A program made the position numbers and the translations under genes. A DNA stretch of 42,733 bases, from the IMG/VR virus record IMGVR_UViG_3300050335_000080, one strand, 5' to 3'. The notes under the pieces were generated by a model. It ran no database searches. It saw only the letters and a list, made by a program, of their open reading frames with translations, and was not told the DNA's origin. The DNA comes from a virus. Shown piece by piece: positions 1,369-25,552 of this stretch (its first letter is position 1; each line of letters begins with the position of its first letter).

Positions 1369-1383
1369 CCCCTTGTTTTCTGG

Positions 1384-1412: not shown

Positions 1413-1457
1413 TACAACTCTTAGTCGTAACGCTTAGATTTTCTCGCCAAGTGTTTA

Positions 1458-1486: not shown

Positions 1487-1505
1487 GCTTAATGAAATAG
1501 GGGTG

Positions 1506-1901: not shown

Positions 1902-1913
1902 GGAGGTTTTTTG

Positions 1914-2291: not shown

Positions 2292-2336
2292 TTACCTAAG
2301 CGCCCGAAACGACTGAGATAAAAGGGAGGGTTTTCT

Positions 2337-4993: not shown

Positions 4994-5283
4994 TTGCACC
5001 CCTCCCCCGCCCACACAAAAAGCCCGTTTTCCCTGTGGGCGATTTGTGGGCAAATATTGCGTGGATGTACATAGTTTATCACGGACACCCACGGAAGTTG
5101 AAGGGTATAAAAAAATCCGCCGTTGCAAGGCTTTAGGACATCCTTGGACAACTGCGGAAAGTGGGCTTGGTGCCGGGGGGGGGGATGGAAATAATTGCGC
5201 GGGAGTAGTATTTATAATTGTTTGGAGGCTTTTTAAATTTTGCCTGTGGGCGGTTTTACTTTTTAAGTCCACTCCAGGGCACT
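4994..5283. other. Non-coding region next to int and a probable attP region with candidate arm-type repeats
   Basis: No convincing ORF. The region is AT-richer than its flanks. CCTGTGGGCG occurs at 5032-5041 and 5243-5252, and TGTGGGC also at 5045-5051. No tRNA-like 3' fragment was recognised. Confidence 0.35.
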
Positions 5284-7041: not shown

Positions 7042-8460
7042 TCAGTCCTTAATCGCGAGCACCAGCTCGATATCCGCTCCGCCCGCCAGGTTCGCCGTCA
7101 CCGGCTCGATGGGCTCCAATCCACCCTCGAGGAACACGTTCTCGTACACGCCCGACTCCAGGACGACCGCGCCGCCCTCCAGGGGAACCTCGTCCACCGT
7201 GATCCCCTCGCCCAGGGCAATCACCGGCGCCCCGTTGTATCCGGCATTCCCCGTCACGGAAAACGCCGCCACGCTGATGTTGGCCACCTTGCCGCCCTCG
7301 ATGGCCCGGATGGCCCCCTGGATCACCGCCGCCGCATTGCTGGAAGCAGTCTCGTTCGCCAGCAGGATGGAGATCACGCCGCCTTCGGCCGTTACCGCCA
7401 GGGCGTCGGAGTCATTCACGTCGATCGAAATCTTGATCCCGTTGGACGCCGGCCCCCAGACCCCGGAGGCGAACGTGAGGGTCTTCCCCTCGGCCACCGT
7501 AATCGTCTTGCTCGCATAGACCGGAGCGAGAGGGGCGCTGTCGTACGCCGCGTTGCCCACCACCGTCATGGCGCTCACGTCGAGAGTCTCGCCATCGGGG
7601 CCGAGCGCCAGGAGAGCCTGCACCGCCGCCTCGATGAGATTGTCGGCATTTTTCGATCCCGTGGTATTGGCCAGCTTCACCAGGATATCGTAGGTGCCGG
7701 CCGGGTTCGACACGGCCAGAGTATCGTTGGCCGCCGTCTCCAGGGTCACGGAAATCACGTTCCCGGCAGGCCCCTTCACTCCGCTCGTGAACGTCAGCGT
7801 TTTTGCGCCGAAGGTGAACGTCTTCGCCGCCGCCGTCCGTGCCGGAGGCGCCGCGTCGTACTGTGTGGACCCTGCCACCGTCATGGCGGACACGTCGATG
7901 GCCTCGTCGCCGGCCCCCACCGTGGACAGTGCCTGCACCGCCGCCTCGATCAGATTGTCCGCGTTTTTCGACCCCGTAGTGTTTGCCAGGGCAATGATGA
8001 TCTTCTTGAGGCTGTCGACCTTGCTCACCGCCAGGTTGTCGTCCGCCGCATTTTTAAACTCCACGACGATTTCGTTCGAGGCGATCCCCTTCACGCCCGA
8101 AGTCACCGTCAGGGTTTTGCTGTCGCCGAAGTCAAAGATGCGCTTCGCCGCCGCGTTCCCCTCCTGGGTCACGGCCGAAGCGGACGTCCCGCTGCGGAGC
8201 TTGATAAAATTCCACGGCGCCAGATCCAGGGCGATGCTCGACAGACTGACGTTCCGCGACGCCGCAGCCGTTGCGGACACCTCTGTGCCCGTATCGTTAT
8301 ACAGGTCCTGCCAGGTAACCCCGTCGTGGCTCACTTGAAACGTGATCGCCGTCGCTCCTGCGGCCCAGCCGGCAGGTATCGAGAGACCGTGGAATTTCCC
8401 GTTCCCTACGTCAACCTTGTGGGAGAGGCTTTCCCCTGAAGCAATAGTTGCTGTTCTCAC
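7042..8460 (-). CDS. Virion-surface/fibre-associated protein with three tandem repeats of about 105 aa
   Basis: GTG start after GAAGGAGGG. It lies between the receptor-binding genes and the lysis cassette. It has a Thr/Ala/Gly-rich, beta-type composition. Confidence 0.7.
   Translation of the reverse strand: MRTATIASGESLSHKVDVGNGKFHGLSIPAGWAAGATAITFQVSHDGVTWQDLYNDTGTEVSATAAASRNVSLSSIALDLAPWNFIKLRSGTSASAVTQEGNAAAKRIFDFGDSKTLTVTSGVKGIASNEIVVEFKNAADDNLAVSKVDSLKKIIIALANTTGSKNADNLIEAAVQALSTVGAGDEAIDVSAMTVAGSTQYDAAPPARTAAAKTFTFGAKTLTFTSGVKGPAGNVISVTLETAANDTLAVSNPAGTYDILVKLANTTGSKNADNLIEAAVQALLALGPDGETLDVSAMTVVGNAAYDSAPLAPVYASKTITVAEGKTLTFASGVWGPASNGIKISIDVNDSDALAVTAEGGVISILLANETASSNAAAVIQGAIRAIEGGKVANISVAAFSVTGNAGYNGAPVIALGEGITVDEVPLEGGAVVLESGVYENVFLEGGLEPIEPVTANLAGGADIELVLAIKD
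7225..8154 (-). repeat. Three in-frame tandem repeats (about 315-321 nt each) inside the 472-aa protein
   Basis: The units start near aa 103, 210 and 316. They begin KTLTVTSGVKG.., KTLTFTSGVKG.. and KTLTFASGVWG... The segment ANTTGSKNADNLIEAAVQAL is identical in units 1 and 2, and the DNA there is nearly identical (7617-7675 vs 7931-7989). Confidence 0.85.
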
Positions 8461-12154: not shown

Positions 12155-12180
12155 TGAAAAGGGGGCCCTGAGGCCCCCTT
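12155..12180 (-). terminator. Hairpin (partial terminator?) between the giant gene and the tailspike gene
   Basis: 9-bp stem aagggggcc/ggccccctt (12159-12167 and 12172-12180) with a 4-nt loop. The minus-strand RNA would end ...CCCCCUUUUCA. Confidence 0.45.
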
Positions 12181-12181
12181 C

Positions 12182-15100
12182 CTATCGTCTGCCCTTCTTC
12201 TTCGGCGGCGTGATCACGAAATCCCACGGGCTCCAGTCCCGGTCATTGTCCAGGTACCGGCCCACCGCCTTCATGGTCCGCATGATCTGGTTGCTCGGCA
12301 GCCCGAACACCGGCCCGGAGATCTCCACCAGATGCCCCGGGATCTTCTCCCAGTCCGGCTCGTCTCCCCCGAGACCCCATTCCGCAGTCTTCAGAAGATC
12401 AGTCATCACCTTGGCCGCCGCCGTCCCCGCCGACGCCATGGGGCTCATCCGGTAGGAGAACCCGGACGACGCAGCGTTCACCACGTCCCGCACAAGGATC
12501 AGCTGGGACGCGCCGTACTGCAGCGTGGAATTCAGAGCCCACCGCAGAATGTCGTCGGGCTCGTCCTCCTCCGGCCCCCGGCCGGACATGAGGTCCTCCA
12601 GGAGCGCCGGCAGCACGTACATGGTCAGGGCAAAGGCCGCCAACCTGGGGATGTCCCTCACCCCGTGGCCCCGGAACCACTGCTCCCTGGTCTGCTGGAA
12701 CATGGAGCCGAAGGCCGTGTAGAACATGGTCATGCTCTTCCATGCCGGGGATCCCTGCTGGATCGCCGCCAGGTCCTTCGCCGCCCCCGTGTTCTGGGTG
12801 CTGCGCACCACGAAGTCCGCGTACTCCAGCGCCTTCGCCTCGTCGCCGTTGAACTCCAGCATGCCCTTGTCCCAGGCGGCCGTCCACACCGGCAGGCTCA
12901 CCGCCATATCCATCCATCCAGCGAACAGGAAGAAGGTCTCCTGCACCGCGCTCCACCTGCCCCGCACCGGCGACGCTGTCACGGCCTCCATGGCCGCCTT
13001 CACGTCCCGGTCGAAAGACCGTACCCGGTCCCGCAGGTACTCCGACTTTCCGAAGGCGAAATCCCGCATCTCTCCCCACTGGAAAGGGTTCCGCCAGAAG
13101 TTGAACGCCGCCAGCGCCGTGCGCTTGTACCCCAGCACCTGGACGGCGGGGAACCACCCGAAGACCTGCTTCGCCGCCGAGGAGAGGGACCATCCCAGGA
13201 TGGCCGCCGACGTCCGCCCCATCACCTTCTGCATCATCTGCTCGCCGTAGTTCGACGGCGTACGGTAGGCGTTCGCCAGCCCGTTCACCCACGGCTGGAA
13301 CTGCTTGAAGGCCTCCATGCCTATGGAGCCGATGATGGTCTTCTGCACCTGGGGATCCGCCAGCAGCTTGTTCAGGTCCCGGATGACGGGGCGGAAGTAC
13401 AGGTCATGGAGGGCGTCCCGCAGGTGCTCCGTCTCAACGCCGAGGTCCAGCCGCAGCAGCCGCTTCCCCCGTTCGCCGTGGTGCCGCTCTTTCGTGTGGC
13501 CGCTCTTGGTGTGCGCCCTGCTTCCCTGGGGGGCGTAGAGGGCCTTCGACGTTTCTTTCTCGGACACCACGAAGTTGTCCCAGTTCGACTCGGGCCGGAA
13601 CTTCAACGTCATATACCCGCCCCGGTAGGTCACCCCGGAGGCGCTCGTCACCGGCAAGTGCTTCACCTTCTTCGGCGTCACCCCGGTGACCTTCTTCGAC
13701 ATGGCCGCGATATCTCCCCAGTACGATTCGTTCAGGTCCCACACCGCCTGGGCGACCTCGTAATCCTTCTCTTCCAGCACCTGGGAAAAGAGCTTTTCCA
13801 CTTCGGCGGATCCCATGCGGAAGGCCGCCCAGTACTCCTCGTCGCTGCCGTAGTGGATCCATCCCTTGCCGGAATTCCACACGGTCCGGTCGAACCCGTA
13901 GCCGAACACCACCTCTTCCCTGTTCTCCAGGGCGCCCCAGTTCAGCAGCAGGGCGATCACGTTCTCCCTGCTCAGCACCAGGGGCTTCCCCGTGGACGGG
14001 TCGAGCTGCTGGAGGGTGTATTTCTTCTTCGTCATCTCCCCCCGCTCCTCAGACGAATAGACCGAAAAGATCGTCTCGAGGCGGCTCTTCGCCTCCCGCA
14101 TCCGTTTCATCTCCGCCCGCTCCGCCTTCACCACGGGATCGAAGAACGTCAACCAGGCGACCGCCATGTCCTTGAATCCGTCCAGCCTCCGGAGGATGTG
14201 CTCCACCCGGTCCGAGGACGCCAGGTATCTCCCGATCACCCCCGCGCCCCGGTAGTCCGGGTCCAGGGGCGTCTCCTTCATTGTGCCGTGGACCGCCGTC
14301 ACCGAGGCCTCCAGGTCCGCCTTCGCCTTCGCGAAATCCGCCTCCCGCTCCGCCGCCAGCAGCTTGTTCCGGCTGCGGCCGAAGTAGTCGATGGCCTCCA
14401 CGGCCTCCACAAGTTCCCGGAACTCCGTCACCGTCAGGTCCTTCCAGGACATTTTCCGGTCCTTGTAGTCGTCGGTGATCAGCCATTTTGCCACCGGCAG
14501 CTCGGCCCCCTGGTTGTTCGGGTCCGCGCCGATCTGGGCATTCGCGGCCGCCACCCACTCCCCCAGGTGGGGACGGTCCCCGCTCAGCTCGTCCTCGCCG
14601 TTGAAGCCGTACCGCTCCGTCAGGCCCATGACCTGGGCGAAATGCTCCTCCCCGATCACCGCCCGGAGGCGCTTCCGGCCGCCCCAGTACTTCTTCAGGT
14701 GTTTCTCGGCCTTCTCCATCTCGTCCCGCGCCGCCAGGGACGCCTGGTACAGCGCCGTGGACATCATCTCCCGGTCCTTCGCCGCCAGGGACTCCTCGTA
14801 CCGTCCCTTCAGAGCCAGCTCGTAGGCCTCCCTGCCCGCCTTCCTCGCCGCCGCCAGGTACCGCGACGCCGCCCGGGCGTCCCGCACCCGCTTATCTGCG
14901 ATCAGCTGCTCCGCCACCTCGCGGTACGCCCGCACCTGGGCCGACATCTGCCGGGCCTGCTGGGCCGTGGTCTCCCAGGCGGACGGCTGGTCCTCCATCT
15001 GCTCCGGACCGAACTGGAGATCCCCGATCTTCCGCGCCAGAATCGCCTGCTCCAGGGCCAGCAGCCGGAGCCTCGCCTCGCCGGAGAGCATCTCCTCCGC

Positions 15101-18100
15101 GAGGGTTTGCATTGTTTCCCGGTCGGACGCCTTGTTCTCCAGGTCCCGGACCTCGGCGTCAAGCCGGGCGTTCAGCTCCGCCTCGAAGGGATTCCTCGCC
15201 TCCTCCGCCAGGAGCGCCTGCAGTTCCTCCACGCCCCCCAGCCCCAGCAGATCCGCCGCCGCTTCCATGGGCACCGTGCCCTCGGGTGACGTCAGCCGGG
15301 CGTTCGCCTCGCCGTACCGCTCGTCCGGGGCGAGGTTGTACCCCGTATCGGCGAACTGCAGCAGGTCGTCGTAGGCCTTCCACGCCGCCGATTCCCCCCG
15401 CATCGCCTCCCGAATCCCAGGTTCCGCCGCTTCCCTGCGCTTCCGTGCCTGCTCCCGGGTCTCGGCGCCCAGCTCCTGCAGCAGCACCGCCAGCAGCTTC
15501 GTCTTCGCCTCGGAAGCCGCCTTGTCGGCAGCCTCCCGGAGGGCGTCGGCCTCCACCGTGGGGATCCCCTGCTGGATCAGGCGGGTCCGCAGCCTCTCCG
15601 ACTCCCGGAGAGACCGCGCCTGGTCCACCTCCTCCTCGGAGGCCAGCATCCGGTCCATCACCGCCCGCACCTCGTCGGACAGCTCCACGTCGGGAGCGCC
15701 CTTCAGCGCCTTGTACACCTTCGCCAGCCACCGCTTGAAATTGTCGAATATCTGCCGGAGTGCCCGGCTTGGGGCCAGCCCCTCGAAGAGGTACTGCTCG
15801 AAGCCCCGCGCCCAGTACTCCTCCGCCGCAACTCTCACAGCGTCGGCCAGCACGGCGTCGGCTTCCTTTCCCGCCAGGGCGGCCCGCACGATCCCCGCCC
15901 CGTCGGGAGCGGCGAACAGTGCCCGGACATCCTCCGATACGGTGCCGTGCTTCACGATCCACTCCGCCAGGTCCCTCGCGTGGCCTCCCCACCAGCTCCG
16001 GACGACCTCCCAGTCGCCGGCCGTTCGGGAATCCGCCTTCCCTGCCCTCACCAGGGACTCCAGGTCCCACAGGAACAAATGCCCCAGCTCGTGAAGGAAC
16101 GTGCTCCGGTTCGCCTTGGGCGTCAGGGTGATGGTGATGCCCCTGTCGCTCCGGTTAATGAAGCCCTGGGTGGGATATTGCCGTCCTCCGGCGCTTTTCT
16201 GGTAATAAGTCTGCTGGATGGCGATGGCCTTATCGTCCCAGATGACATAATTTCGGCTGTCGCCGCTTCCATCTCTGGACAAGGCGTCAAGATATCGAAT
16301 GCCCTTGATCCCTACACCGTTGAGAATTTCCGAAGCAGCCTGCCGATCATCGGCATAATTCTTTCCGATCGTAAATCCGGCATCCTGCGCCCTGCCCACC
16401 AGCTGATTGTAAACTTCCTTTCCGGTGGGGTTGCCTTTTAACCAACTCTTTACATTGATGCCTTCGACGGTCTTCAGAGCCTTTCTTATTGCCTCCGGTT
16501 GCTCGTTCAGAGGCTTGTCCCAGTCCAGCAGAACGTTGTCGTCTGGGATGTCAACCTCATAGATCTGTCCCGGACCCGGCCTTTCAATACGTATCTCATG
16601 ACCACGGAGCGATTCGACAAAATTGATGGCGTCGTCATACTGCTTCAGGCGGTTTGGAGAAAGATTCGGATTGCCTTCCTTGCGTCCACGCAGATATTCC
16701 TTCGCCCTGTCTATATCTCCGTCGGCGCCATTGAGCGCTGCGCGGATCATGGCCGGGAATGGAGCGGACGGCATTTTCTCTTTCAAGGAGGTGATGGAAG
16801 CTCCATCGATGAGAATGTCTGTCGGCTGCCTGTTGGTAACGCTCGTCCTATAATATTCCGCGACCTCTTTCTTGTCCGCGAAGTACAGCCCCCACCCGAA
16901 AGCCTGTGCTCTCTCCCCAGTTCCGATATATTCAGTCGAAAACTCGGTGAATCTGTGGGGTGAGCCATGGTAGGCCGTCTGGTACCGCATATCCTTCACG
17001 CCGGCGTCGAACCGCTGGGACAGTGGAATCACATTCCCCTGGTCGTCCCGGGTGATGCCGTCGGCCTTCTTCACCTGCCAGGGGAAGAAGGGGATCCACA
17101 CCGTATGCCCTTCCCCGGTGTACTTGCCCCCCTGGTCCTTGATGCCGTCGTACCCCATCCTGTGCAGCTCCCGGGACACCCAGTCGGGAACGCTCGTCCA
17201 CGCGAAGGACGTGCCGTCCCGCCGGTCCTGCGCCAGCAGCTCTATCCATTCCCTGCCGCTGAACCGCCGCTTGTCCCACTCGTCCACCACGTTTGCCGAG
17301 CCCCGTTTGCCCTTCGACGCCGCCTCCAGGGCGGCAAAATCATCGTCGGAAATAGCGCTCGTATCGAAGGGGGTCCGGATTGCCAGGTGAGCCTCCAGCA
17401 CCCCGGGCTGTTCCAGCCAGGGGGAGTCATACACCACGCCGTCCAGCCCCGCCAGCCGCAGAATCTCGAGGAACCGCTCCTCCTGGTCGAACAGCTCCCC
17501 ACTGTCCAGCCAGATCTCCACCGCCGCCGCCAGAACGTTCCCCCGCTTCTCCCGGAGCACAAAATCCCAGTGGCTCTTGTTCGTCATGCCGTACTCGTCG
17601 TCGGTGAGCCTGAACTCGTCCGCGACTTCTCCGTTTTCGTCCGTGTTCACCACGTGGGGCAGCTTGGCCGCCAGTTCCCGCCGCTTGTCCAGGGACAGGT
17701 ACAGCCACGCCTGGTCGATGGTCTTCGGCTTGCCCCGCCCCACGGCCACCTTGAACCATCCGGTGTACGACTCAGGGATCTCGATGCTTGTATCCGCCTT
17801 GTTCTTCGAGTAGTTCTCCGCGATAGTGGGGTCATCGGTGAAAAACGGCATGGGGCCGCTCGTCGCCCGCTCCGGCTTCAGCTCGTTCCCCAGCCGGTCA
17901 ATCCGCTTCGAGCCGTGGAACACATGCTGCACCGTGAAACCGGCTTCTTTTGCCGCCTCGTCCACCATCCCCTGGGCTGTTTCCATATCCCCGGCTTCCA
18001 CCGCCGCCAGGTACTCCGCATCAAGGGCGGCTCCGTCCTGGTACAGCGTCAGCTCAGTGTTCTTATCCGCCGCGTCCATAAGCTCCATGGCCGTCGGAGG

Positions 18101-21100
18101 TTGTTCCTCGAACAAAACGGCCTGGTCCGGAGAACCCTGGGCGTCCACGAGCCTCGCGTACCCCGCCAGAAACGACGCTATCCGCGATGGTGCCCGTTTG
18201 TGTTTTTCCAGGATGGAAAGGACCCTCTTCACGTCGTCGGAGATCCCCACTTCCTCGAACATATTCACCTGGGAGAGGAACTCCCGAACCGTCTCCCCTC
18301 GCTCCCGAAGGATCGACAGCTGATTGACCGCCTGTGAAACAGCGCCGGCGATAGAATACTCCGCCTTCAGCAGGCCGGCCTGTATCCGGTCCTCCATGAC
18401 CGCCAGGACGGGAGCGGCCTGGATCAGCCCCTTGTTCACGTTCTTGATGTTATCGTCTTCCGATTCCGCCATCCGCTCAAGGACCTGGTGATCACCGTAG
18501 GCCCTCGCCGCCAGGGCGTTCTGCAGCCGGACAACTCCCTGCCTGCTCAGCGTCCCCGCAGAAGTGGTCACCGTGCCCCACTCGTTCGGAGGAACGACCT
18601 TGCTCAAAAACTCCCGGACGAACGGCCTGTTTTCCGGGGCCAGCAGGTCACTCTCGGGCCGGAACGTCCCGAGGATCTTCTCGGACATCCGCTCCGCGTC
18701 GGCTCTCGCAGTCTCGGAGGCGGACATGGCCGCCACGGACGCCACGTTCGCTTCCTTCGCAAACTGCGCCCGGTCCACGTCCGTTTCCCTCACCCGCACC
18801 AGGACGGGAGATTTCACCGCGTCAATGTCGGCTTCCAACAGGCCGAAGCGCCCCGCGTTTTCCTTCAGCCAGGAGATGTATTTGCTTCGGGCCTTCTTTG
18901 TCGCGGCGCCGCGCTTGTACATCAGCTTTAGGGCGATGGTGCGGCCGTTGCCGCTCTCCACCACCATATCGTCCCCGACGATAGGAGCGCCGTCGGAGGC
19001 CATTCGGCTTTCCCCCAGCCGTTCGGGATCCAGCCCGGACAGGATCTTCTCCACCTGGGAGATCCCCGCCGCCCGGTCCCGCTTTCGGGGCTGAAGTTCC
19101 TTGGGGTATTTTTTGTTCACCGCGAAGGATTCCGTGTTGCTTGCGATCAGCTCGGATGCGTCTACCACACGGAAACGGGTCTGGATGGTCGTGCCTTCGC
19201 CGGTAACAACCTCACTTACAATTCCGTTGCTTTGTCCGGAATTGTCTGGTATAATTTTCTCGGAGGTGGTATCCATGGGCGTGAGAACATTTGAGTTCTT
19301 TGTTGATTCCGAGGATGACAACGTGTTCGCTATCGAAACCGGCCCCGACGGTAACTGGCTTCCCGCCGAGGAAGGAACCAAGGGCCCGAGGGTTTTCAAG
19401 ATTCTCTCCAACGCTTCTCTCAAGCCGCTTTCCTGGGAAACAGCTTCCAGGTGGAAACGCAGGGCCTGGAGGGTCTCCAAGGAAGAAGCGCTCAGGGCGG
19501 CAGGTGCGCTCTGACTGGTGGCAAGTGCGTTCTCGTAAAATTCCCTGCTTAGTGATCGGACTTTTTCCGCAAGTATTTTTTCATTTTCTATGTTTAATTG
19601 ATCCGCCAGCTTATACAGCTCGTGCCCTATGGAGTTTTTTACCTCCGTAATAGCTCTGTGATGTACCTGCAACTCCCCCACATATCCATTCGGAAGCCGC
19701 ACGTTCAACAGATAATCCCGATATCCTTCCGGCGTCGGTTTGCTCCACCGGTCCTTGATCCGGACAATCCGGTTATCATCCCTCAGGGACTCCACCGCAC
19801 GGAGCAAATCCTCTTCCGTCTCGAAGATCAGCGAACCGCCGAGAACATCCACCACCCGGCTGTAATCTCCGTTGTAGTCGTCGGGGTTGAGAGCCTTCCG
19901 GTTGACGCTTTCGGCCGTCTTCATCTCCGGCCGCATGAGCAATTCGCCGCCGAGCTGAGACTGCAGCTCTCCCATCAGCGAATTGAATTCCGGCTCGGCC
20001 TTCGTCGCCTCGGCGTACAGTGTGTCGATGTTTGTGACCGCCCTGTTTCGGACGGGCTCCACCTTCACCGGCACCGACAGGGCGCCTGCTTCATTCAGCG
20101 CCGTGTAGGTGTGGTTGCCGTCCGCTATGGAATACGTGCCGTCGCCGCGGTCCCATACGGTCAGGGGTTCCCGCTTGGGACCCTCTCCCCGCTTCGCCTT
20201 TTCCAGCCGGTCTTTTGCGGCGGCAAGGCGTTCGGGGTTTATGGTCTCGCTTGGGCGGAGGTTTCCCAGGGGAACCACCCTGCCGCCCTCAGCGCTCACA
20301 CCGTCGGCGTCTATGGCGGGTTGCGCCGGAGTGGCCGCTGGAGTCTTGGGCTCCGCCACCAGGCTCTTCGTGCCGTCGGCGTTGTCTCTGATCGTCAGGT
20401 TCAGCCTGTCCACCCACTCCTTCACGGTCGTGTTCCAGCGTGAGGCCGCCTGGACCGCGTAGGCTGCGAACAGGGTGCTGTAAGATTCCGCCTCGTTCTT
20501 CCCGAGCCACTTGATGCCCAGACCTTCCAGCTGGGTCTTCACCACCGACTTCGCGTAATCCACGTCGCTCGTCTCGGCCCCCGACTCCTCCAGATACTTC
20601 CGCGCCGCTTCGGAATCCTCATGCAGGCGGTTCAGCCGCTCCTCCTCGAAGGCTTTCGCTTCCCGTGCCGTCATGGCGCCCTCGCCAAGACGGAGGTCCG
20701 GAAGGAGCGCCTGGTTCAGTTCCGTGCCGGCGATCTTTTCCATGTACACGCCCGTGGGCAGCCAGACGTCGCCGCCTGTGGCCGCCGCTTCCCTCAGATC
20801 CTCCGGAGCGATGCCCAACGTCCCGGCCACCTCTTCCGGATCCGCGCCGATCTGCATCAGGGTCTCGGAGAATCCCTTCGCGTCGATGCCGATCTCCGCC
20901 ACGGGACCGTTCTTCGTCAGCTCCGTGGCATATTCGCCCATCCCCTCCGGCAGCCGCTTCAGCGTCTTCGACCCGGCCGTCGCGTCTCCGATAGCCTTGA
21001 AAAAGTCCACGTTCTTCCGGGCTTCCCTGGCGGCGCGGGCGTCGGCGTAAAAAGAAAGCCCCTGCCCGGGCATCATGCCCAGGGCGAAGGTGTGCAGCGC

Positions 21101-22669
21101 CTCCCACATTTCCACCCCCACGTCCGACACGATGTCGGCCAGCGGCATGGAGGAGTATTTCGCTATGTTCTGTACCTGTTCCCCTACGGGCAGGTCGGAC
21201 CAGGGGACCCCGCTCCTGATAGACTGCGCCACCCGTTCGGCATACGCGGAATCCTTCAGCTGCTCCCCCACGATGATCTGCCACAGGCGCTGCGCTCCCT
21301 CTGTGGCCACCTCGAAGGTCAGGTCTTTCCCGTACCCCTTGATGGCATCCTTCAGGGCGGTCTGGACCGTTTTTGTCTTCAGCATTTCGGCCACGGCCTG
21401 CTTGCTCAGGAATGCCGCCCCTCCGGGGAACGCCTTGATGATCCGCCCCATCTGCAGTGATTCCAGGAAACTTGCTCCGGCCCCGTACAGGAAGGCCCCA
21501 ATTCGGGCGTACTCCTCCGGCAGGGGATTTCCGTCCTCATCTTTGATTCCGAGGTATTCCTGCAGCGCGAGGCCGGCCTCGACGGAAAACCCTTCTTCCA
21601 TGACGCCGAGCCCGAAGCCGGTTCTGGCCATCAAGCCGAAGGCCCCGGGGATGGTGACAATCTCTTCCGGGAAGGCGGCCTGCGGTCCCATGTTCCCCAG
21701 AACGCCGGCAGCCAGGGCAGCGAGAGCCCCATACTGGAGCCCCCTGTACGCACCCCTCGAAAACTGGGGTAGTCGCTGCCCGGCCATAGTCCCGGCCCCG
21801 TACAGCATCTTGTCCCAGGAGCCGTCTCCCTTATTGGCGTTTTTCGCCATCTCGGCGTCAAGCACGGCAAGACGGGCCCTTTGCTCATCGGTCATCTTGC
21901 CGGTGAAGAGGACGGTGGTCCATATCCTGCCGCTCTCCGACATGGCCGTGGCGTTCCGGAAGCCTCTTCCGGGGAGGGTGGTCTCCCTGTCGTGGGTCTC
22001 CTGCTCCACCAGAGATTCGAGGGCCATCAGGGCGGGAAGGTCGTCCCAGACGGCGGCCATCCTCCCGGGGATCTGCAGCCAGGAGCGCAGCTTCGGCCCC
22101 ACCTTCTCCAGGGTGTCCAGCTGGTCCAGGGTCATCTTCTGCCGCCATGCCTCATCCCGGACCTCCGGATCCTGCACCATCATCCCCACGGGGATCCGCG
22201 TGGCGAGGCTCGCCTGCACGTTCCTGGAGTACATCTCCGGGTCGTAGGACTGGGCGTCCTTGAACATCCCGGCAAGAAAACGGGTGGAGTCGCTGAACCG
22301 CCTCTCCCCGTCCACCAGCGCCTTCTCTTTCGGCGACAGCTCCACGAACATGCCGCTTCCGGGAGCGGCCGGGTTCAGGCGCTCCTCTCCACGGAACGGC
22401 TCGTCCTCGTAGGGTGACAGGTCGATCCCGCCGCTCCGGGCGAGAGAGTCCAGGTCGGCCGCCGGTGCCGGACTCAGGTCCGCCTCGGCGTCAACAGCCT
22501 CGGTGCGGAGATCCGTCAGCCGGTCCCGGGCACTCGCTACCTCGGGGATCGAGGACACGTTTATCCCGCCGAACAGGCCTCCTGCAGACTCCTCGGGGGG
22601 CTCGGTCTCCCCGGCCCCCCCGTTCTGCAGTATTCTTTTCTCTTCGTCAGTCAGCGGGATAAACGCCAT
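12182..22669 (-). CDS. Giant (3,495 aa) polyvalent internal-virion/ejection protein in the T7 gp16 position
   Basis: A single 10,488-nt ORF. RBS GAGGAGG lies 6 nt upstream of the ATG at 22669. Multiple enzyme-like motifs are listed as separate features. It is flanked by gp15-like and tailspike genes. Confidence 0.9.
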   Translation of the reverse strand: MAFIPLTDEEKRILQNGGAGETEPPEESAGGLFGGINVSSIPEVASARDRLTDLRTEAVDAEADLSPAPAADLDSLARSGGIDLSPYEDEPFRGEERLNPAAPGSGMFVELSPKEKALVDGERRFSDSTRFLAGMFKDAQSYDPEMYSRNVQASLATRIPVGMMVQDPEVRDEAWRQKMTLDQLDTLEKVGPKLRSWLQIPGRMAAVWDDLPALMALESLVEQETHDRETTLPGRGFRNATAMSESGRIWTTVLFTGKMTDEQRARLAVLDAEMAKNANKGDGSWDKMLYGAGTMAGQRLPQFSRGAYRGLQYGALAALAAGVLGNMGPQAAFPEEIVTIPGAFGLMARTGFGLGVMEEGFSVEAGLALQEYLGIKDEDGNPLPEEYARIGAFLYGAGASFLESLQMGRIIKAFPGGAAFLSKQAVAEMLKTKTVQTALKDAIKGYGKDLTFEVATEGAQRLWQIIVGEQLKDSAYAERVAQSIRSGVPWSDLPVGEQVQNIAKYSSMPLADIVSDVGVEMWEALHTFALGMMPGQGLSFYADARAAREARKNVDFFKAIGDATAGSKTLKRLPEGMGEYATELTKNGPVAEIGIDAKGFSETLMQIGADPEEVAGTLGIAPEDLREAAATGGDVWLPTGVYMEKIAGTELNQALLPDLRLGEGAMTAREAKAFEEERLNRLHEDSEAARKYLEESGAETSDVDYAKSVVKTQLEGLGIKWLGKNEAESYSTLFAAYAVQAASRWNTTVKEWVDRLNLTIRDNADGTKSLVAEPKTPAATPAQPAIDADGVSAEGGRVVPLGNLRPSETINPERLAAAKDRLEKAKRGEGPKREPLTVWDRGDGTYSIADGNHTYTALNEAGALSVPVKVEPVRNRAVTNIDTLYAEATKAEPEFNSLMGELQSQLGGELLMRPEMKTAESVNRKALNPDDYNGDYSRVVDVLGGSLIFETEEDLLRAVESLRDDNRIVRIKDRWSKPTPEGYRDYLLNVRLPNGYVGELQVHHRAITEVKNSIGHELYKLADQLNIENEKILAEKVRSLSREFYENALATSQSAPAALSASSLETLQALRFHLEAVSQESGLREALERILKTLGPLVPSSAGSQLPSGPVSIANTLSSSESTKNSNVLTPMDTTSEKIIPDNSGQSNGIVSEVVTGEGTTIQTRFRVVDASELIASNTESFAVNKKYPKELQPRKRDRAAGISQVEKILSGLDPERLGESRMASDGAPIVGDDMVVESGNGRTIALKLMYKRGAATKKARSKYISWLKENAGRFGLLEADIDAVKSPVLVRVRETDVDRAQFAKEANVASVAAMSASETARADAERMSEKILGTFRPESDLLAPENRPFVREFLSKVVPPNEWGTVTTSAGTLSRQGVVRLQNALAARAYGDHQVLERMAESEDDNIKNVNKGLIQAAPVLAVMEDRIQAGLLKAEYSIAGAVSQAVNQLSILRERGETVREFLSQVNMFEEVGISDDVKRVLSILEKHKRAPSRIASFLAGYARLVDAQGSPDQAVLFEEQPPTAMELMDAADKNTELTLYQDGAALDAEYLAAVEAGDMETAQGMVDEAAKEAGFTVQHVFHGSKRIDRLGNELKPERATSGPMPFFTDDPTIAENYSKNKADTSIEIPESYTGWFKVAVGRGKPKTIDQAWLYLSLDKRRELAAKLPHVVNTDENGEVADEFRLTDDEYGMTNKSHWDFVLREKRGNVLAAAVEIWLDSGELFDQEERFLEILRLAGLDGVVYDSPWLEQPGVLEAHLAIRTPFDTSAISDDDFAALEAASKGKRGSANVVDEWDKRRFSGREWIELLAQDRRDGTSFAWTSVPDWVSRELHRMGYDGIKDQGGKYTGEGHTVWIPFFPWQVKKADGITRDDQGNVIPLSQRFDAGVKDMRYQTAYHGSPHRFTEFSTEYIGTGERAQAFGWGLYFADKKEVAEYYRTSVTNRQPTDILIDGASITSLKEKMPSAPFPAMIRAALNGADGDIDRAKEYLRGRKEGNPNLSPNRLKQYDDAINFVESLRGHEIRIERPGPGQIYEVDIPDDNVLLDWDKPLNEQPEAIRKALKTVEGINVKSWLKGNPTGKEVYNQLVGRAQDAGFTIGKNYADDRQAASEILNGVGIKGIRYLDALSRDGSGDSRNYVIWDDKAIAIQQTYYQKSAGGRQYPTQGFINRSDRGITITLTPKANRSTFLHELGHLFLWDLESLVRAGKADSRTAGDWEVVRSWWGGHARDLAEWIVKHGTVSEDVRALFAAPDGAGIVRAALAGKEADAVLADAVRVAAEEYWARGFEQYLFEGLAPSRALRQIFDNFKRWLAKVYKALKGAPDVELSDEVRAVMDRMLASEEEVDQARSLRESERLRTRLIQQGIPTVEADALREAADKAASEAKTKLLAVLLQELGAETREQARKRREAAEPGIREAMRGESAAWKAYDDLLQFADTGYNLAPDERYGEANARLTSPEGTVPMEAAADLLGLGGVEELQALLAEEARNPFEAELNARLDAEVRDLENKASDRETMQTLAEEMLSGEARLRLLALEQAILARKIGDLQFGPEQMEDQPSAWETTAQQARQMSAQVRAYREVAEQLIADKRVRDARAASRYLAAARKAGREAYELALKGRYEESLAAKDREMMSTALYQASLAARDEMEKAEKHLKKYWGGRKRLRAVIGEEHFAQVMGLTERYGFNGEDELSGDRPHLGEWVAAANAQIGADPNNQGAELPVAKWLITDDYKDRKMSWKDLTVTEFRELVEAVEAIDYFGRSRNKLLAAEREADFAKAKADLEASVTAVHGTMKETPLDPDYRGAGVIGRYLASSDRVEHILRRLDGFKDMAVAWLTFFDPVVKAERAEMKRMREAKSRLETIFSVYSSEERGEMTKKKYTLQQLDPSTGKPLVLSRENVIALLLNWGALENREEVVFGYGFDRTVWNSGKGWIHYGSDEEYWAAFRMGSAEVEKLFSQVLEEKDYEVAQAVWDLNESYWGDIAAMSKKVTGVTPKKVKHLPVTSASGVTYRGGYMTLKFRPESNWDNFVVSEKETSKALYAPQGSRAHTKSGHTKERHHGERGKRLLRLDLGVETEHLRDALHDLYFRPVIRDLNKLLADPQVQKTIIGSIGMEAFKQFQPWVNGLANAYRTPSNYGEQMMQKVMGRTSAAILGWSLSSAAKQVFGWFPAVQVLGYKRTALAAFNFWRNPFQWGEMRDFAFGKSEYLRDRVRSFDRDVKAAMEAVTASPVRGRWSAVQETFFLFAGWMDMAVSLPVWTAAWDKGMLEFNGDEAKALEYADFVVRSTQNTGAAKDLAAIQQGSPAWKSMTMFYTAFGSMFQQTREQWFRGHGVRDIPRLAAFALTMYVLPALLEDLMSGRGPEEDEPDDILRWALNSTLQYGASQLILVRDVVNAASSGFSYRMSPMASAGTAAAKVMTDLLKTAEWGLGGDEPDWEKIPGHLVEISGPVFGLPSNQIMRTMKAVGRYLDNDRDWSPWDFVITPPKKKGRR
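15650..16177 (-). other. Domain in the giant protein: zincin-like metallopeptidase (MPTase-PolyVal-like, aa ~2165-2340)
   Basis: STFLHELGHLF, with the HExxH at nt 16079-16093 (aa 2193-2197), and a downstream AAEEYWARGFEQYLFEG as the candidate third-ligand Glu helix. Confidence 0.55.
16205..16990 (-). other. Domain in the giant protein: ART-PolyVal-like module 2 (aa ~1894-2155)
   Basis: AYHGSPHRFTEFS (H1901), GWGLYFADKKEVAEYY, and GIKGIRYLDALSRDGSGDSRNYVIWDDKAIAIQQ. Landmark order is the same as in module 1. Confidence 0.5.
17000..17962 (-). other. Domain in the giant protein: ART-PolyVal-like module 1 (aa ~1570-1890)
   Basis: VFHGSKRIDRLG (H1585), PMPFFTDDPTIAENYSK, and GYDGIKDQGG..HTVWIPFFPWQVKKADGITRDDQGNVIPLSQRFDAGVKDMRYQ. 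Confidence 0.5.
18905..19177 (-). other. Domain in the giant protein: second ParB-superfamily domain (ddrB-ParB-like, aa ~1165-1255)
   Basis: RFRVVDASELIASNTESFAVNKKYPKELQPRKRDRAAG...APIVGDDMVVESGNGRTIALKLMY. The GNGR core lies at nt ~18943-18957. Confidence 0.5.
19580..20002 (-). other. Domain in the giant protein: RelA/SpoT-homologue (RSH) synthetase-like nucleotidyltransferase (aa ~890-1030)
   Basis: RPEMKTAESVNRKAL (Syn1-like), VDVLGGSLIF (DxxGxR-like, with Arg replaced by Ser), PEGYRDYLLNV (GYRSLH-like), GELQVHH (EIQIRT-like) and IGHELYK (HxxYK). Confidence 0.6.
20051..20278 (-). other. Domain in the giant protein: ParB/Srx-like N-terminal-type domain (aa ~798-873)
   Basis: LRPSETINPERL...PLTVWDRGDGTYSIADGNHTYTALNEAGALSVPVKV. 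The DGNH(R/T) core and the overall length fit ParB-like nuclease/NTPase domains. Confidence 0.55.
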
Positions 22670-22682
22670 GGTTTTTCCTCCT

Positions 22683-24500
22683 CTATCGATACAGGTATTC
22701 CTCCGGCGGGATCCATTTGTCCGTGCCGTTGGTGAACACGTCGAGCTCCCGGCTGTACGTGTACCCCTTCGGCACCAGGTACGCCGGAATTTTCCAGGTG
22801 GTGCCCAGGATCCAGTTGAGCATGCCCTTCTTCGCCGTTTCCTTTTTCATCAGTTCGTCGGCGATCTTCAGTTTTTCCTCAGTCTTGTCGGGACCAAGGT
22901 TCCTGGTCCTTGTCAGGAAGGCGCTCATGAAAAGCGGCAGCTCCTCTTCCCGGAGCTTCGCCTCCTTGTAGCGCCTTTTCACCTCGCCGTTCACATAGCT
23001 CTGGGCCGGGTCCTTACTGTCCTCCATGTACTTCTTCAGTTCGTTGACCTTGGCCTGGCTCTGCCTGGAGGCCGCCGACAACAGCTGTTCCCTGGTGGTG
23101 ATCTCCCCACGGTCGATGGCGTCCCGGATGGCCCACTCCTCCGCCAGGGCGGCCTGTTTCTCCGCCTCGTCGTAGGTCGGTTTGTGCACCTTCCGGAAGA
23201 CGGACTGCGCCCGGGCGAGCTGGGCGTCCGTGGCTCCCTTCTCCTTCATTGTGGCCAGAAACTCCTCTTCCGAAGCAGTCGCAAGCGCCAGGTCCTCGGC
23301 CTCCCCCTCGAAGACGGCTCTATGCTCATTTATCGCCCGCCGTACCGTCCCCGGAGGCACCCCGTACTGCTCGCCCAGGGCGAGGATCTCCTCTTCGTCC
23401 TTCGCGAAGTCGGCCCGGACCCCGAAGTCCTGGGCGTTCCACCGCATCCAGTTGTTCACCAGGGTACGTCTCTTTTTCTCCGGCACGCCCATACGTGCGA
23501 GCTGCGCGTCCAGTTCCTTCGCGGAAGAGGCCCCCTCCACCGTATCGGCGATCCGTTCATTCCTCACCCGGGTTGCCTCCGCCTGCGCCGTGCGCCGTTC
23601 GGAGTACCGTGTCTTCACCGCCGTGACCAGGCTGTTCTCCCTGTCCCCCTCGTAGTGCTCCCGGATATACCGGAGCGCCGCGGTTTCGGACCCGAAGCGC
23701 TTCACCAGCTTGTCCGCCTCTTCCTGGGTCCAGATCACGGCCACCTGGGCATCGATGGCCTTCGCCCACTTCGCGTGGTTCGTGCCGTCGATGGCGCCCT
23801 TGTTTTTCTTGAAGTACGCTTCCGCAGCCTTCGGGTCCGTCTCCAACCACTGGGCCAGGCGGGCCTCGTGGGCTGCCGAGTGCAGCGCCTTCACCTTGGC
23901 CGTGACCACTTCCTCCCCCTGGTCCGCCAGGAGGGTCAGCAGGGCGTTCTCCGCAGTGTCCAGCTGCGCCTCGAATATGCCGTCGTCGGCGTAGTTTGCC
24001 GCGATGGTGTTCACGGCGTTCGTCACCGCCTGGTTCGTCACCTCCACCCGGTAGTTCTGGAACTCCGCCCGCTCATGCCGGGCGATGGAATCCACCTTGC
24101 TGCTCCGGTTCCGGAGGATGTATTTCGAGAAGAGGCTCCTCTGGTTCTCGTTTTCCAGCCCCTTCATGAGATCGGATTCGAGCTTTCCGAACCACTCCGT
24201 CGCCTCGCCGCTCATGCCCTTGGCGCCTTTGCCCTTGCGGTTGAAGAGCCCGGAATCCGGGTCGTTCAGGTACTTCGTGGTCAGCTCGTCCCACGAGTTC
24301 GCCGCCTCGAGTACGGCCGCGTCGTCGGCCTTCTGCCGCATGTCAAGGGCGATCCTGACGCCCTCGTCGGCCACGTCGCCGAGCATGCGCCCGGCCTGCT
24401 GCATCGCCTTCGCCTCGAACCCGCCGGCCGCCCCCTCGGGCAGCGCCACGGGCCGGGACACCTCCGGGGAGAGCCCCCGCTCGTACACCGGGACCCTCAT
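22683..24500 (-). CDS. Internal virion (core/ejection) protein, gp15-position
   Basis: 605 aa, helical and charged. It lies between the gp14-like gene and the giant gene. The assignment rests on synteny with the T7 core genes, and no enzymatic motif was seen. Confidence 0.6.
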   Translation of the reverse strand: MRVPVYERGLSPEVSRPVALPEGAAGGFEAKAMQQAGRMLGDVADEGVRIALDMRQKADDAAVLEAANSWDELTTKYLNDPDSGLFNRKGKGAKGMSGEATEWFGKLESDLMKGLENENQRSLFSKYILRNRSSKVDSIARHERAEFQNYRVEVTNQAVTNAVNTIAANYADDGIFEAQLDTAENALLTLLADQGEEVVTAKVKALHSAAHEARLAQWLETDPKAAEAYFKKNKGAIDGTNHAKWAKAIDAQVAVIWTQEEADKLVKRFGSETAALRYIREHYEGDRENSLVTAVKTRYSERRTAQAEATRVRNERIADTVEGASSAKELDAQLARMGVPEKKRRTLVNNWMRWNAQDFGVRADFAKDEEEILALGEQYGVPPGTVRRAINEHRAVFEGEAEDLALATASEEEFLATMKEKGATDAQLARAQSVFRKVHKPTYDEAEKQAALAEEWAIRDAIDRGEITTREQLLSAASRQSQAKVNELKKYMEDSKDPAQSYVNGEVKRRYKEAKLREEELPLFMSAFLTRTRNLGPDKTEEKLKIADELMKKETAKKGMLNWILGTTWKIPAYLVPKGYTYSRELDVFTNGTDKWIPPEEYLYR

Positions 24501-24501
24501 G

Positions 24502-25086
24502 TCAGCGCCCCCTGCGGAACAGGTGCCGGTAGCCGGTGGCGTTGTACGTCAGGGGAGACCCTGCCGCCGCCGATCCGCCCACGTTCCACCCCGACGCCGT
24601 GCCGCCCTTGAAGGGGTTGTACCCCATCTTGTACCAGCTGCTCGCCACCGAGGCACCCGTCCCCAGCAGGGACGTGACGGCGCTGAAGGTGGCGGCGCTC
24701 TTCGCAGACGATGCGGCCGAACGGGCGTTGTTCGCCTCGTCCTGCAGGTCCGCCCGCCGCACCTGGGCGTTGTACCGGAGGGTGGCCACGTCCTTCATCC
24801 CTTCCCCCTCCGTGTCGAGCACGGACGCCAGGGGCGTGCCCGTGCCGGGGGAAAATCCAGATGCCCCGTACCCCGCCCGCTGTTCCCCCTTGATCACGGC
24901 CATCTTCCGCTTCAGCCGGGCCTCCTCCTGCCCGGCGGCCGTCACTTCCTCGTGGGCGCGCCGTTCCGCCTGGGCGGCCTGGGCTTCGTACTGGGCGGCC
25001 TGGGCCTGACCGGCCTGGTAGGTCCCGATGGCCGTAATGACGCCCGCGGCGGCCTGCAGCACGCTAAAAGTTGCCGCTAGACTCAT
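24502..25086 (-). CDS. Internal virion protein, gp14-position (hydrophobic N-terminus, Ala/Gln/Gly-rich)
   Basis: The likely ATG is at 25086, after GAGAGG. MSLAATFSVLQAAAGVITAIG is a hydrophobic helix. The C-terminus is Gly/Ser/Ala-rich. Confidence 0.6.
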   Translation of the reverse strand: MSLAATFSVLQAAAGVITAIGTYQAGQAQAAQYEAQAAQAERRAHEEVTAAGQEEARLKRKMAVIKGEQRAGYGASGFSPGTGTPLASVLDTEGEGMKDVATLRYNAQVRRADLQDEANNARSAASSAKSAATFSAVTSLLGTGASVASSWYKMGYNPFKGGTASGWNVGGSAAAGSPLTYNATGYRHLFRRGR

Positions 25087-25552
25087 TTTTTTCACCTCTC
25101 ATCCAGGCGTAATGGAACGGCAGCCCGTCGATGCCGTAGGGCGCCGGATCCTCTATATTGAAACCGAGCCATTTCATCCACTTCACCGATGTCTCGTTCC
25201 GGGCGTCCACCCAGTTCACCAGCAGGCTGTAGCTCGATTTCACCGTTTTCAAGTAGTCCCTCACCGTCCGCAGGTAGGGCAGCGCCGCCCGTTCGATTTC
25301 TTCCGTGGCCAGCTGCCAGGGATATCCCACCCCCCCCAGCATCCCCCCGGGAAAGCACCCCGCCATGCCGATGGCCTTTCCGTCCCACGTGCCCACCCAC
25401 AGCAGCGGACTCTTCTTCGCCGCCAGCCACAGCCCCTCGTAGGGGAGCAGCCTCGAGGCCGCCCAGATCTCCTGTTTGTCGGATAGCCTCATCCCGTCGG
25501 CGATGACGGCCACGTCTCCCTCACGCAGAGGGCGCACCTCGAAGCGTCCCAT
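25064..25552 (-). CDS. Small virion-assembly/internal protein at the gp13 position (possibly a GNAT-like fold)
   Basis: ATG at 25552, 7 nt after GGAGG and 2 nt after the upstream stop. The 162-aa sequence MGRFEVRPLREGDVAVIADGMRLSDKQEIWA... resembles the DUF2833/gp13-type pattern from memory only. Confidence 0.5.
   Translation of the reverse strand: MGRFEVRPLREGDVAVIADGMRLSDKQEIWAASRLLPYEGLWLAAKKSPLLWVGTWDGKAIGMAGCFPGGMLGGVGYPWQLATEEIERAALPYLRTVRDYLKTVKSSYSLLVNWVDARNETSVKWMKWLGFNIEDPAPYGIDGLPFHYAWMRGEKNESSGNF

Follow-up and report, generated by a model that had tools for sequence, protein, structure and literature searches.

A 3,495-residue polyvalent protein built on a Bbp10-type scaffold in a temperate BPP-1-like podovirus

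Results

The genome in IMG/VR virus record IMGVR_UViG_3300050335_000080 was analysed over its full length of 42,733 nucleotides (nt), referred to here as the window, and attention was focused on one very large open reading frame (ORF) on the minus strand at positions 12182-22669, hereafter called the giant. A prediction made earlier from the sequence alone had described this ORF as uninterrupted, 3,495 amino acids (aa) long and a quarter of the genome in size, and had placed its product in the slot of the T7 core protein gp16. Indeed, the ORF starts with ATG, runs over 3,495 codons (10.5 kb) free of stops, and accounts for 24.6% of the ~42.6-kb genome. As read from the sequence, an AGGAGG ribosome-binding site is located 8 nt 5′ of its start, and a GC-rich, terminator-like hairpin (12157..12178, minus strand; GGGGGCC-TCA-GGGCCCCC followed by TTTT) occupies the gap between the stop of the giant and the start of the tailspike gene. 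Since the window ends with an exact copy of its first 127 nt (direct repeat at 1-127 and 42607-42733), the assembly was taken to be circular or complete. A circularly closed assembly would account for such a repeat, a genuine terminal repeat being the alternative.

No entry for the exact giant protein was found in the assembly index. An orthologue of equal length (P0211; 3,495 aa) was present in a different Joint Genome Institute (JGI) metagenome, where it is 90.7% identical to the giant, collinear over residues 1-3,495, and embedded among genes of identical order. The similarity between the window and the P0211 contig stops at the terminator-like hairpin. A partial protein from a metagenome-assembled genome (P0051) is 98% identical to the giant, and its label, 'Acidobacteriota', is the only taxonomic hint to the host. 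A more distant orthologue (P0002) belongs to a prophage on the 660-kb contig ERZ21869602 and, together with the next ORF, is collinear with the giant at 52-58% identity. It is interrupted by a single in-frame TAG (L002:17831-17833) opposite approximately E2866 of the giant, after which a 613-aa ORF in the same frame matches giant aa 2879-3491 at 63%. This TAG may have arisen by nonsense mutation as the prophage decays, or it may be an error of sequencing or a stop that is suppressed. Because P0211 is an independent, collinear and 90.7%-identical orthologue, a misjoin is argued against, and the giant has no internal stop. We conclude that the giant ORF is real and no assembly artefact.

The giant is organised into an N-domain, ~1,400 aa of cargo, a zincin-like region and a C-domain, all coordinates of which refer to the minus strand. 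When the whole protein was searched against PDB sequences, only two sub-threshold matches were obtained, and profiles were needed for the identification of modules. The original prediction had named six enzyme-like modules, all of which found support, albeit of unequal kind: the ParB/Srx, RSH, ddrB-ParB and two ADP-ribosyltransferase (ART) modules were supported by profile searches, and the sixth, the zincin, is identified by the conservation of its motif. The cargo thus comprises five enzyme-like domains.

The cargo begins with a predicted ParB/Srx-fold domain (aa 785-890; 20000..20317), which matched a ParB-like PHROG at E=2.4e-6. An 18-sequence profile of this domain retrieved SbnI (2e-9), Noc (1.8e-5), Spo0J (1e-3) and sulfiredoxin (0.01) from the PDB, while a weak match to SbnI was the sole result of an NCBIfam scan. 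The giant keeps 13 of the 14 family-conserved positions, including D850-G-N852. Directly adjoining is a putative RSH nucleotide pyrophosphokinase domain of the Tas1/Apk type (aa 891-1060; 19490..19999). With a five-sequence profile (aa 774-1060), the synthetase domain of Tas1 (6OX6) was matched in the PDB at E=3e-16, whereas RelSeq (5e-7), RelA (1e-6) and YwaC (3.5e-6) scored far less well, and the Rel, RelA and small alarmone synthetases as a group spanned 5e-7 to 1e-2. A type VI secretion system (T6SS) toxin, Tas1/Apk1, is consequently the best solved relative, nine orders of magnitude above Rel/RelA, and its catalytic residues are present in the giant. Pfam RelA_SpoT was recognised in three of the five aligned RSH homologues; the giant's own segment had no Pfam match. 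The giant keeps every one of the 18 positions that are conserved across 155 homologues, including D941, G982-Y-R-D985 and E999-x-Q1001. That Tas1 ranks so far above the Rel enzymes is suggestive of a (p)ppApp product.

An exhaustive HMMER search identified the ParB/Srx-RSH pair in 2,494 proteins at E<=1e-3. It occurs free-standing in proteins of ~350 aa (P0215, P0216, P0225 and others) as well as within giants, the largest of which has 7,242 aa. That an SbnI-like ParB/Srx domain and a Tas1-like synthetase are constantly paired suggests that the two form a functional couple, for regulation or for substrate supply. No mention of this pairing was found in the literature cited here.

The next cargo unit is a DdrB-like ParB domain with a conserved C-terminal extension (aa 1126-1560; 17990..19294). 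Its Pfam ddrB-ParB core (aa 1158-1294) scored above the cut-off (E=6.6e-32; 110.6 bits), PHROGs 5143 and 2299 were matched as well, and all 28 conserved positions are kept, including G1240-N-G-R1243 with its conserved Arg. It is followed by ART1 (aa ~1575-1870; 17060..17947), a divergent ART-PolyVal-like domain. The isolated ART1 segment remained under the Pfam cut-off of 31.2 bits (ART-PolyVal, E=1.7e-5; 26 bits), but its homologues scored 63-72 bits, and two of these, P0066 and P0080, showed ART-PolyVal inside the aligned stretch at 6e-17 and 1e-19. The assignment of ART1 to ART-PolyVal would accordingly hold by transitivity only. Among the invariant residues that ART1 retains are H1585 and Y1620. 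The last cargo domain, ART2 (aa 1897-2157; 16199..16981), was directly recognised as ART-PolyVal at aa 1899-1942 (E=1.2e-10; 42.7 bits, cut-off 31.2), and more than 200 homologues were collected. It keeps H1901, Y1929/Y1940 and D2128/D2145, the H-Y-D active-site pattern. We also considered that ART1 and ART2 might be tandem paralogues, which was ruled out as no pairwise similarity was detected.

Two or more disparate predicted activities in one polypeptide, Pfam families specific to polyvalent proteins and a neighbourhood of virion genes are thus combined in the giant. As judged from its domains, with Pfam ddrB-ParB and ART-PolyVal both above their cut-offs, it is a polyvalent protein, which is what it had been called in the original prediction.

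The scaffold that carries this cargo starts with the N-domain (aa 1-770; 20360..22669), defined by family homology and AlphaFold2 modelling. LPD22 is barely detectable in the giant (aa 136-225, 21995-22264; E=5e-5, 23.9 bits), but it is strong in Bbp10 (3.5e-25) and AF gp16 (1.4e-24) and clear in Carin1 and most metagenomic members. The model reached a predicted local distance difference test score (pLDDT) of 69 overall and more than 90 for aa 540-700. A Gly-rich segment at aa 281-354 was modelled with low confidence, while aa 540-770 (20360-21052) are conserved and confidently folded. Residues 565-748 align to Bbp10 aa 407-583 (E=2e-11), and residues 329-761 find matches in the corresponding gene of further cultured phages. 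No fold match was obtained when the N-domain model was compared with the PDB using Foldseek.

The zincin-like metallopeptidase motif region (aa 2160-2330; 15680..16192) carries H2193-E-x-x-H2197 and the distal E2284. H2193, E2194, H2197 and E2284 were invariant in all 25 aligned sequences and conserved at >=90% in a 30-member family alignment. This pattern agrees with what Iyer et al. (2017) described for zincins of polyvalent proteins, an HExxH helix with a distal Glu on a second helix.

The C-domain (aa 2331-3495; 12185..15679) is all-helical and matched PHROG 9880 at E=3e-226. Its AlphaFold2 model (pLDDT 75; predicted template modelling score 0.64) was helical nearly throughout, and one conserved hydrophobic helix is located at aa 3343-3361 (12587-12643). 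The domain is 25-31% identical to the C-terminal ~1,250 aa of Bbp10, AF gp16, Cp2, Carin1, Caulobacter, Vibrio and cyanophage proteins, and giant aa 2178-3469 align to Bbp10 aa 782-2030 with 27% identity (E=3e-80). No PDB match was found for the C-domain by sequence profile or by Foldseek (best E 0.25); Foldseek matches to transporters had template modelling scores of ~0.1 and were treated as noise. Among the predicted viral structures in BFVD, 99 matches were obtained at E<=1e-3. Where named, these were C-terminal pieces of giant phage proteins (polyvalent-associated proteins, PolyVal ARTs, MuF-C, nucleases, 'crystallin motif'), and none was named as a gp16-type protein.

As judged by homology, the N-domain, zincin and C-domain are one conserved scaffold. 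Since the zincin belongs to this scaffold, which is common to the relatives, it is part of the backbone rather than cargo, and its earlier listing among the cargo-type modules has to be revised. The C-domain is the anchor, presumed to be part of the ejectosome. Both termini had been described well, with Gly-rich stretches in the N-terminal part and a C-terminal part that is almost wholly helical, but they had been left as unrecognised. Instead, both belong to the Bbp10-type scaffold. What does stand is that the anchor has no Pfam family or PDB representative, and it lies outside Pfam's polyvalent-associated families.

Relatives of the scaffold were collected with a backbone-only chimeric query, and relatives of the modules with segment queries. 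Bbp10 of BPP-1 (2,052 aa) consists of LPD22, a PBECR1 RNase, the zincin (HExxH at 797) and the C-domain. The Pseudomonas phage protein AF gp16 (2,213 aa) carries LPD22, LPD23 and two HExxH motifs, and Carin1 gp32 of a Cobetia phage (2,854 aa) carries LPD22 and PBECR5. The protein XAI95354 of Nostoc phage Nsp-JY18 (L006:3775-15813), annotated as 'lysin', has 4,012 aa and gave a two-part scaffold match; in a Pfam search it yielded a weak LPD22 only, leaving ~2,000 aa of cargo without family assignment. These four proteins occupy the same slot as the giant and contain 0-1 cysteine each. Together with gp35 of Cp2/PhiXacm4-11, they resemble the giant in slot, N-region, zincin and C-domain. Their cargo, in contrast, is entirely different: neither ParB/Srx-RSH nor ddrB-ParB was found in the cultured members or in 80 sampled IMG/VR members. 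Moreover, the cultured members checked have one or two Pfam-recognisable cargo domains, whereas the giant has five enzyme-like ones. Escherichia phages were at first considered to be related to the anchor, but their matches stemmed from the ddrB-ParB segment alone and were gone when an anchor-only query was used.

The backbone-only query delivered 41 further members of 1,466-2,620 aa, most of them longer than 1,850 aa. LPD22 is N-terminal in most of these, and their cargo includes ART-PolyVal, RadC, Zeta toxin, LPD3, LPD23, PBECR and LysM. At least 499 IMG/VR contigs encode the C-domain. Sixty-three complete IMG/VR genes encode proteins of 1,660-4,200 aa (median 2,422), nine of which have at least 3,000 aa and two more than 3,495 aa. 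With larger members at 4,012 and 4,200 aa, the giant represents the upper tail of the known size range of the family. A census of 109 scaffold-bearing proteins, which included the 80 sampled IMG/VR members, showed the zincin plus C-domain in 107, the conserved N-region in 77 and ART2-like modules in 21, while ParB/Srx, RSH and ddrB-ParB were confined to the giant's own clade. In GenBank, family members often go by the names 'lysin', 'lysis protein' or 'crystallin beta/gamma motif-containing protein'.

Comparison of the giant with P0211 revealed that conservation differs strongly between modules. In the scaffold, identity amounted to 98.6% for the N-domain, 86.5% for the zincin and 98.2% for the C-domain. 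In the cargo it was 100% for ParB/Srx, 96.8% for ddrB-ParB and 88.1% for ART1, as compared with 72.9% for RSH and 48.3% for ART2. ART2 is absent from P0051, of which the flanks are 98% identical, and from P0002. The GC content at third codon positions was 0.67 for RSH and 0.61 for ART2, versus 0.83-0.92 in the scaffold and ART1. RSH and ART2 are thus both most divergent from P0211 and foreign in composition, and, as far as the sequences tell, they behave as exchangeable cassettes.

A rearranged set of the same modules was observed in P0001 (L001:614-5746; contig end in JGI 3300033630). This 1,710-aa protein contains four giant-like blocks of 71-94% identity in a different order (giant aa 613-771, 1541-1902, 2161-2254 and 705-1382), interleaved with LPD3 and MuF_C, and its neighbours are ordinary bacterial genes (HicB, TctABC). 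Modules may have been shuffled recently among polyvalent proteins; alternatively, P0001 could be what is left of a prophage, or a product of metagenomic misassembly.

The position of the giant within the genome is that of the T7 gp16 slot, as had been proposed. The minus strand carries, in this order, the small and large terminase genes (TerS, TerL), portal, protease/scaffold, major capsid protein, tail tube A and tail tube B, then a weak gp13-like ORF, a T7_gp14-family protein, a 605-aa protein, the giant and the tailspike. The gp14-like internal virion protein (24502..25095, minus strand; 197 aa) scored just above the cut-off for Pfam T7_gp14 (E=4.4e-6; 27.2 bits, cut-off 27) and matched PHROG 418, 'internal virion protein', at 1e-26. 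The 605-aa internal-virion protein in the gp15 position (22683..24500, minus strand) has a predicted N-terminus of the lysozyme/transglycosylase type: aa 12-231 matched PHROG 'endolysin' families, and phmmer matched epsilon15 gp15 at E=1.2e-9. No Pfam or PDB sequence match was obtained for the 605-aa protein. Both proteins are devoid of cysteine. Directly beyond the terminator-like hairpin lies the tailspike gene (9838-12138, minus strand), encoding a pectate-lyase beta-helix.

The same gene order around a giant homologue was found at four related loci, where Pfam families named for BPP-1 proteins (Bbp19, GP7 capsid, Bbp16) are also present. The remaining genome encodes an integrase (3842-5272), a primase-helicase, a dUTPase and an endolysin, and no tRNA genes were found in it. 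The phage is a temperate BPP-1-like podovirus. Since a megablast search with half of the genome against cultured phages gave zero matches, it has no close cultured relative; a scan of GTDB genomes with the C-domain gave no confirmed relative either.

Discussion

We consider it probable that the giant is a virion-internal 'pilot' protein of the Bbp10 type that doubles as an enzyme delivery vehicle, and that it most likely enters the host together with the DNA. Starting from what was established here (an intact ORF, its position, homology of the scaffold, the identity of the domains, conserved residues that are intact and the variability of RSH and ART2), we infer packaging, ejection, cleavage, substrates and biological effect as follows. 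The scaffold would package the giant into the capsid core along with the gp14-like and transglycosylase-type proteins. At infection, the giant would exit via the tail in an extended form, after these two proteins, and its C-domain would contribute to an envelope-spanning channel. The zincin at the cargo-anchor junction would then cut the polypeptide at or near this junction and free the enzymes in the cytoplasm on entry, where they would disable host functions or defences ahead of phage gene expression. By analogy with Tas1 and Apk2, the RSH domain, acting with ParB/Srx, would most likely convert adenine nucleotides to (p)ppApp and drain ATP; an alarmone or another acceptor is the alternative. 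The ARTs probably modify host proteins, as the injected Alt protein of T4 does, and the DdrB-type ParB may, by analogy, be a nuclease regulated by nucleoside triphosphates or an anti-restriction factor.

Several observations speak for such a delivery. There is not a single cysteine in the 3,495 residues of the giant, as compared with ~1% in the other proteins of the phage (P ~1e-15). Cysteine is likewise lacking in T7 gp15 and gp16, whose ejection is established, and scaffold relatives of 2,000-4,000 aa have 0-1. Such depletion would fit proteins that cross the periplasm unfolded. Furthermore, the HExxH...E motif is located exactly at the cargo-anchor junction. Iyer et al. (2017; PMC5512222) predicted that polyvalent proteins encoded beside virion genes are injected, and proposed zincin peptidases as their processors. 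DdrB of P1 is processed before packaging and incorporated in the head, and mass spectrometry detected the polyvalent protein gp47 of phi24B in virions, a role as an ejection protein being proposed for it. Hardies et al. (2016) regarded Bbp10 as a homologue of internal virion protein D, also called IVP-D (gp16), and described internal virion proteins as hosts of tail lysozymes and of cytoplasm-destined domains, such as the virion RNA polymerase (vRNAP) of N4. In PhiXacm4-11, a Cp2-like phage described in a 2026 preprint, gp33, gp34 and gp35 (2,300 aa) were assigned to the gp14, gp15 and gp16 positions, and a core density above the portal was assigned to gp33-35; no PDB match was reported for gp35. 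The C-domain of the giant is matched by a gene of Cp2, a close relative of PhiXacm4-11. In Apk2, finally, a phage-encoded Tas1-like (p)ppApp synthetase is fused to a MuF head anchor.

Comparison with these systems places the giant more precisely. Like the polyvalent proteins catalogued by Iyer, Burroughs, Anand, de Souza and Aravind (2017), it combines the DdrB-ParB, ART (H-Y-D) and RelA/SpoT families, with a motif of the zincin metallopeptidase (MPTase) type and a barely detectable LPD22. The anchors emphasised in that study were MuF, N4 vRNAP and P1 Dar; gp16, ejection proteins and BPP-1 do not feature in it. T7 gp16 shares with the giant that it is the last and largest of three internal-virion genes between tail tube and fibre, helical and free of cysteine, but it has an N-terminal transglycosylase, which is lacking in the giant and found here on the preceding 605-aa protein, and it carries no cytoplasmic enzyme cargo. 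The vRNAP gp50 of N4 is likewise an ejected podovirus giant of ~3,500 aa with an embedded enzyme that acts in the cytoplasm and a domain of the zincin MPTase type, and its C-terminal domain was described as IVP-D-like (Hardies et al., 2016). In contrast to the giant, gp50 carries a single RNA polymerase for early transcription and is unprocessed in the virion, and no sequence similarity between the two was seen. The Stx phage protein phi24B gp47 (~2,800 aa; LPD5, LPD1, LPD38 and MuF-C) is polyvalent too, and was detected in virions while being invisible in the reconstruction, yet its LPD domains are other ones and it has no match to the anchor of the giant. P1 DdrB, from the Dar locus, is the namesake of the ddrB-ParB domain, but it is a separate head protein of a myovirus with its own C-terminal zincin, whereas in the giant the domain is one cassette of a podovirus protein. 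The RSH domain, lastly, differs from Tas1 and Apk2 in that it is internal in the giant, always follows ParB/Srx, and has no Tis1-like or hydrolase immunity gene nearby.

A number of points weigh against this interpretation. Packaging and ejection are deduced from where the gene lies and from remote members of the family. Searches with the C-domain by phmmer, profiles, hhalign, jackhmmer and Foldseek detected no similarity to T7 gp16, to epsilon15 gp17 or to ejection proteins of solved structure. The zincin gave no significant Pfam or PDB profile match, the weak matches being other zincins and centred on the motif, and LPD22 (cut-off 28.6 bits) and ART1 score below their Pfam cut-offs in the giant itself. 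The nucleotide specificity of the RSH domain cannot be read from sequence, and the zincin cleavage site is a postulate. Nor can cleavage be taken for granted, since N4 vRNAP, with a peptidase domain of a comparable type, enters the virion uncut. Several copies of a 3,495-aa protein together with a 42.6-kb genome might also be difficult to fit into a capsid of T=7 size. The in-frame TAG in P0002 implies that the gene can decay, or that this particular prophage is defective.

How the anchor relates to T7 gp16 is a question of ancestry, and the alternative here is that the C-domain is a true, very diverged T7 gp16 (IVP-D) orthologue with inserted cargo, as opposed to an unrelated protein in the same slot. 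We regard common descent as a serious possibility but lean modestly against it. Hardies et al. (2016), using stepwise joined hidden Markov models and a podovirus-only library, placed Bbp10 in the epsilon15 subgroup of IVP-D, a link that we cite and that neither hhalign nor jackhmmer reproduced. Position, helical character and lack of cysteine match T7 gp16, and a transglycosylase on the preceding protein is also found in epsilon15 and PhiXacm4-11. Literal homology to T7 gp16, however, went undetected in sequence, profile and fold searches: the PDB profile search was empty and Foldseek reached a best E of 0.25, hhalign probabilities against T7 gp16 and epsilon15 gp17 were <=0.2%, a jackhmmer search seeded with the 109 family members recruited neither of them, and the BFVD matches were all polyvalent giants. 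Taken to its furthest, the opposite view would make the Bbp10-type scaffold a distinct podovirus ejection family, unrelated to T7 gp16, that serves as a programmable chassis for effector delivery. Cassettes would be swapped at one site just upstream of a self-cleaving peptidase, and a (p)ppApp synthetase coupled to ParB/Srx would be part of the payload, collapsing the ATP of the host at entry and blunting nucleotide-dependent defences. This extended proposal is conceivable, but in its entirety we hold it to be doubtful.

Alternatively, the giant could be made late and not be injected at all, its enzymes acting in the producing cell or lysogen (superinfection exclusion, late take-over or assembly) and its scaffold being structural. 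In keeping with this, competing elements might be the targets of some polyvalent domains, as Iyer et al. (2017) noted, the free Apk2 domain is more toxic than full-length MuF-Apk2, so that context matters, and packaging of the giant in this phage is a deduction. Nevertheless, we find this unlikely, as the gene lies within the virion module with internal-virion and tail genes on either side and a terminator only after the giant, the whole protein including its cargo is cysteine-free like known ejected proteins, the likewise polyvalent phi24B gp47 was found in virions, and without delivery it is difficult to see why very diverse cargo should be fused to a single anchor throughout the family. For the same temperate phage, a role of the particle or protein mainly as an interbacterial weapon of the lysogen, comparable to MuF-toxins, rather than as an aid to infection might also be envisaged. 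The integrase gene is present, the RSH domain is closest to a T6SS toxin, and for MuF-toxin fusions such a role is the subject of open debate. A weapon of this kind is very unlikely, however, in view of a genome that looks complete and functional (replication, packaging and lysis genes), cultured relatives of strictly lytic appearance that bear the same scaffold, and the finding that, among the genome's other ORFs, no immunity-type gene for the RSH or ART modules (Tis1-like, (p)ppApp hydrolase or ADP-ribosylhydrolase) was found. Least of all do we believe in an assembly chimera or a fused pseudogene. The metagenomic source, the reordered modules of P0001 on a contig end and the varying composition along the ORF might raise this suspicion, but collinear orthologues exist in another sample (P0211) and in a prophage (P0002), no stops occur over 10.5 kb, the conserved residues are intact in every module, and a ribosome-binding site and a terminator properly flank the ORF.

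We therefore retain the interpretation of the giant as a Bbp10-type pilot protein with enzyme cargo. It is a large member of an already known kind of protein and no new class, because its cargo types are in the published polyvalent repertoire, its scaffold occurs in long-known cultured phages, and the idea of cytoplasmic cargo has been published. It had been suggested that this module combination might be undescribed. This holds in so far as ParB/Srx-RSH-ddrB-ParB was seen only in the giant's clade among the 109 proteins; the fusion of cargo to a protein in the gp16 slot, however, was known before. As both cargo on internal virion proteins and the polyvalent concept were already in the literature, the gain is incremental, and the news is modest: a clade-specific cargo set, exchange of the RSH and ART2 cassettes, a single widespread anchor of N-domain, zincin and C-domain, and a family-wide absence of cysteine. 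If the proposed mechanism were true, the family would amount to a natural experiment in phage protein delivery, with one anchor (on at least 499 contigs) and payloads of ~0.5 to 3 kb. Since near-identical relatives differ in single cassettes (RSH, ART2), it would be practical to match an injected activity to a host defence, and to learn if the zincin at the junction sets the cargo free. Cultured phages of Bordetella, Xanthomonas, Pseudomonas, Caulobacter, Vibrio and cyanobacteria commonly carry the anchor, a structural and proteomic description of which would correct many annotations.

Additional features of the genome

The tailspike gene has a GC content of ~0.42-0.45 as opposed to ~0.64 for the genome, and the P0211 phage has a different gene, of 396 aa, in its place. 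The tailspike gene looks like a recently swapped receptor-binding module. Another patch of low GC content (~1000-3000) coincides with a 466-aa ORF on the plus strand (2337-3737) that encodes an HNH endonuclease domain and is located beside the integrase gene; this ORF may be a mobile or moron insertion. The large terminase ORF (33167-35719, minus strand) is 850 aa long, and its N-terminal part matched PHROGs for a P-loop primase and a helicase loader, which may mean that the listed start lies too far upstream or that the protein has an unusual N-terminal extension. Lastly, two more cysteine-free proteins are encoded on the minus strand, namely a protease/scaffold-like protein of 295 aa (30296-31183) and a protein of 472 aa (7042-8460) located 3′ of the tailspike gene. 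The latter may be a further virion or ejected component.

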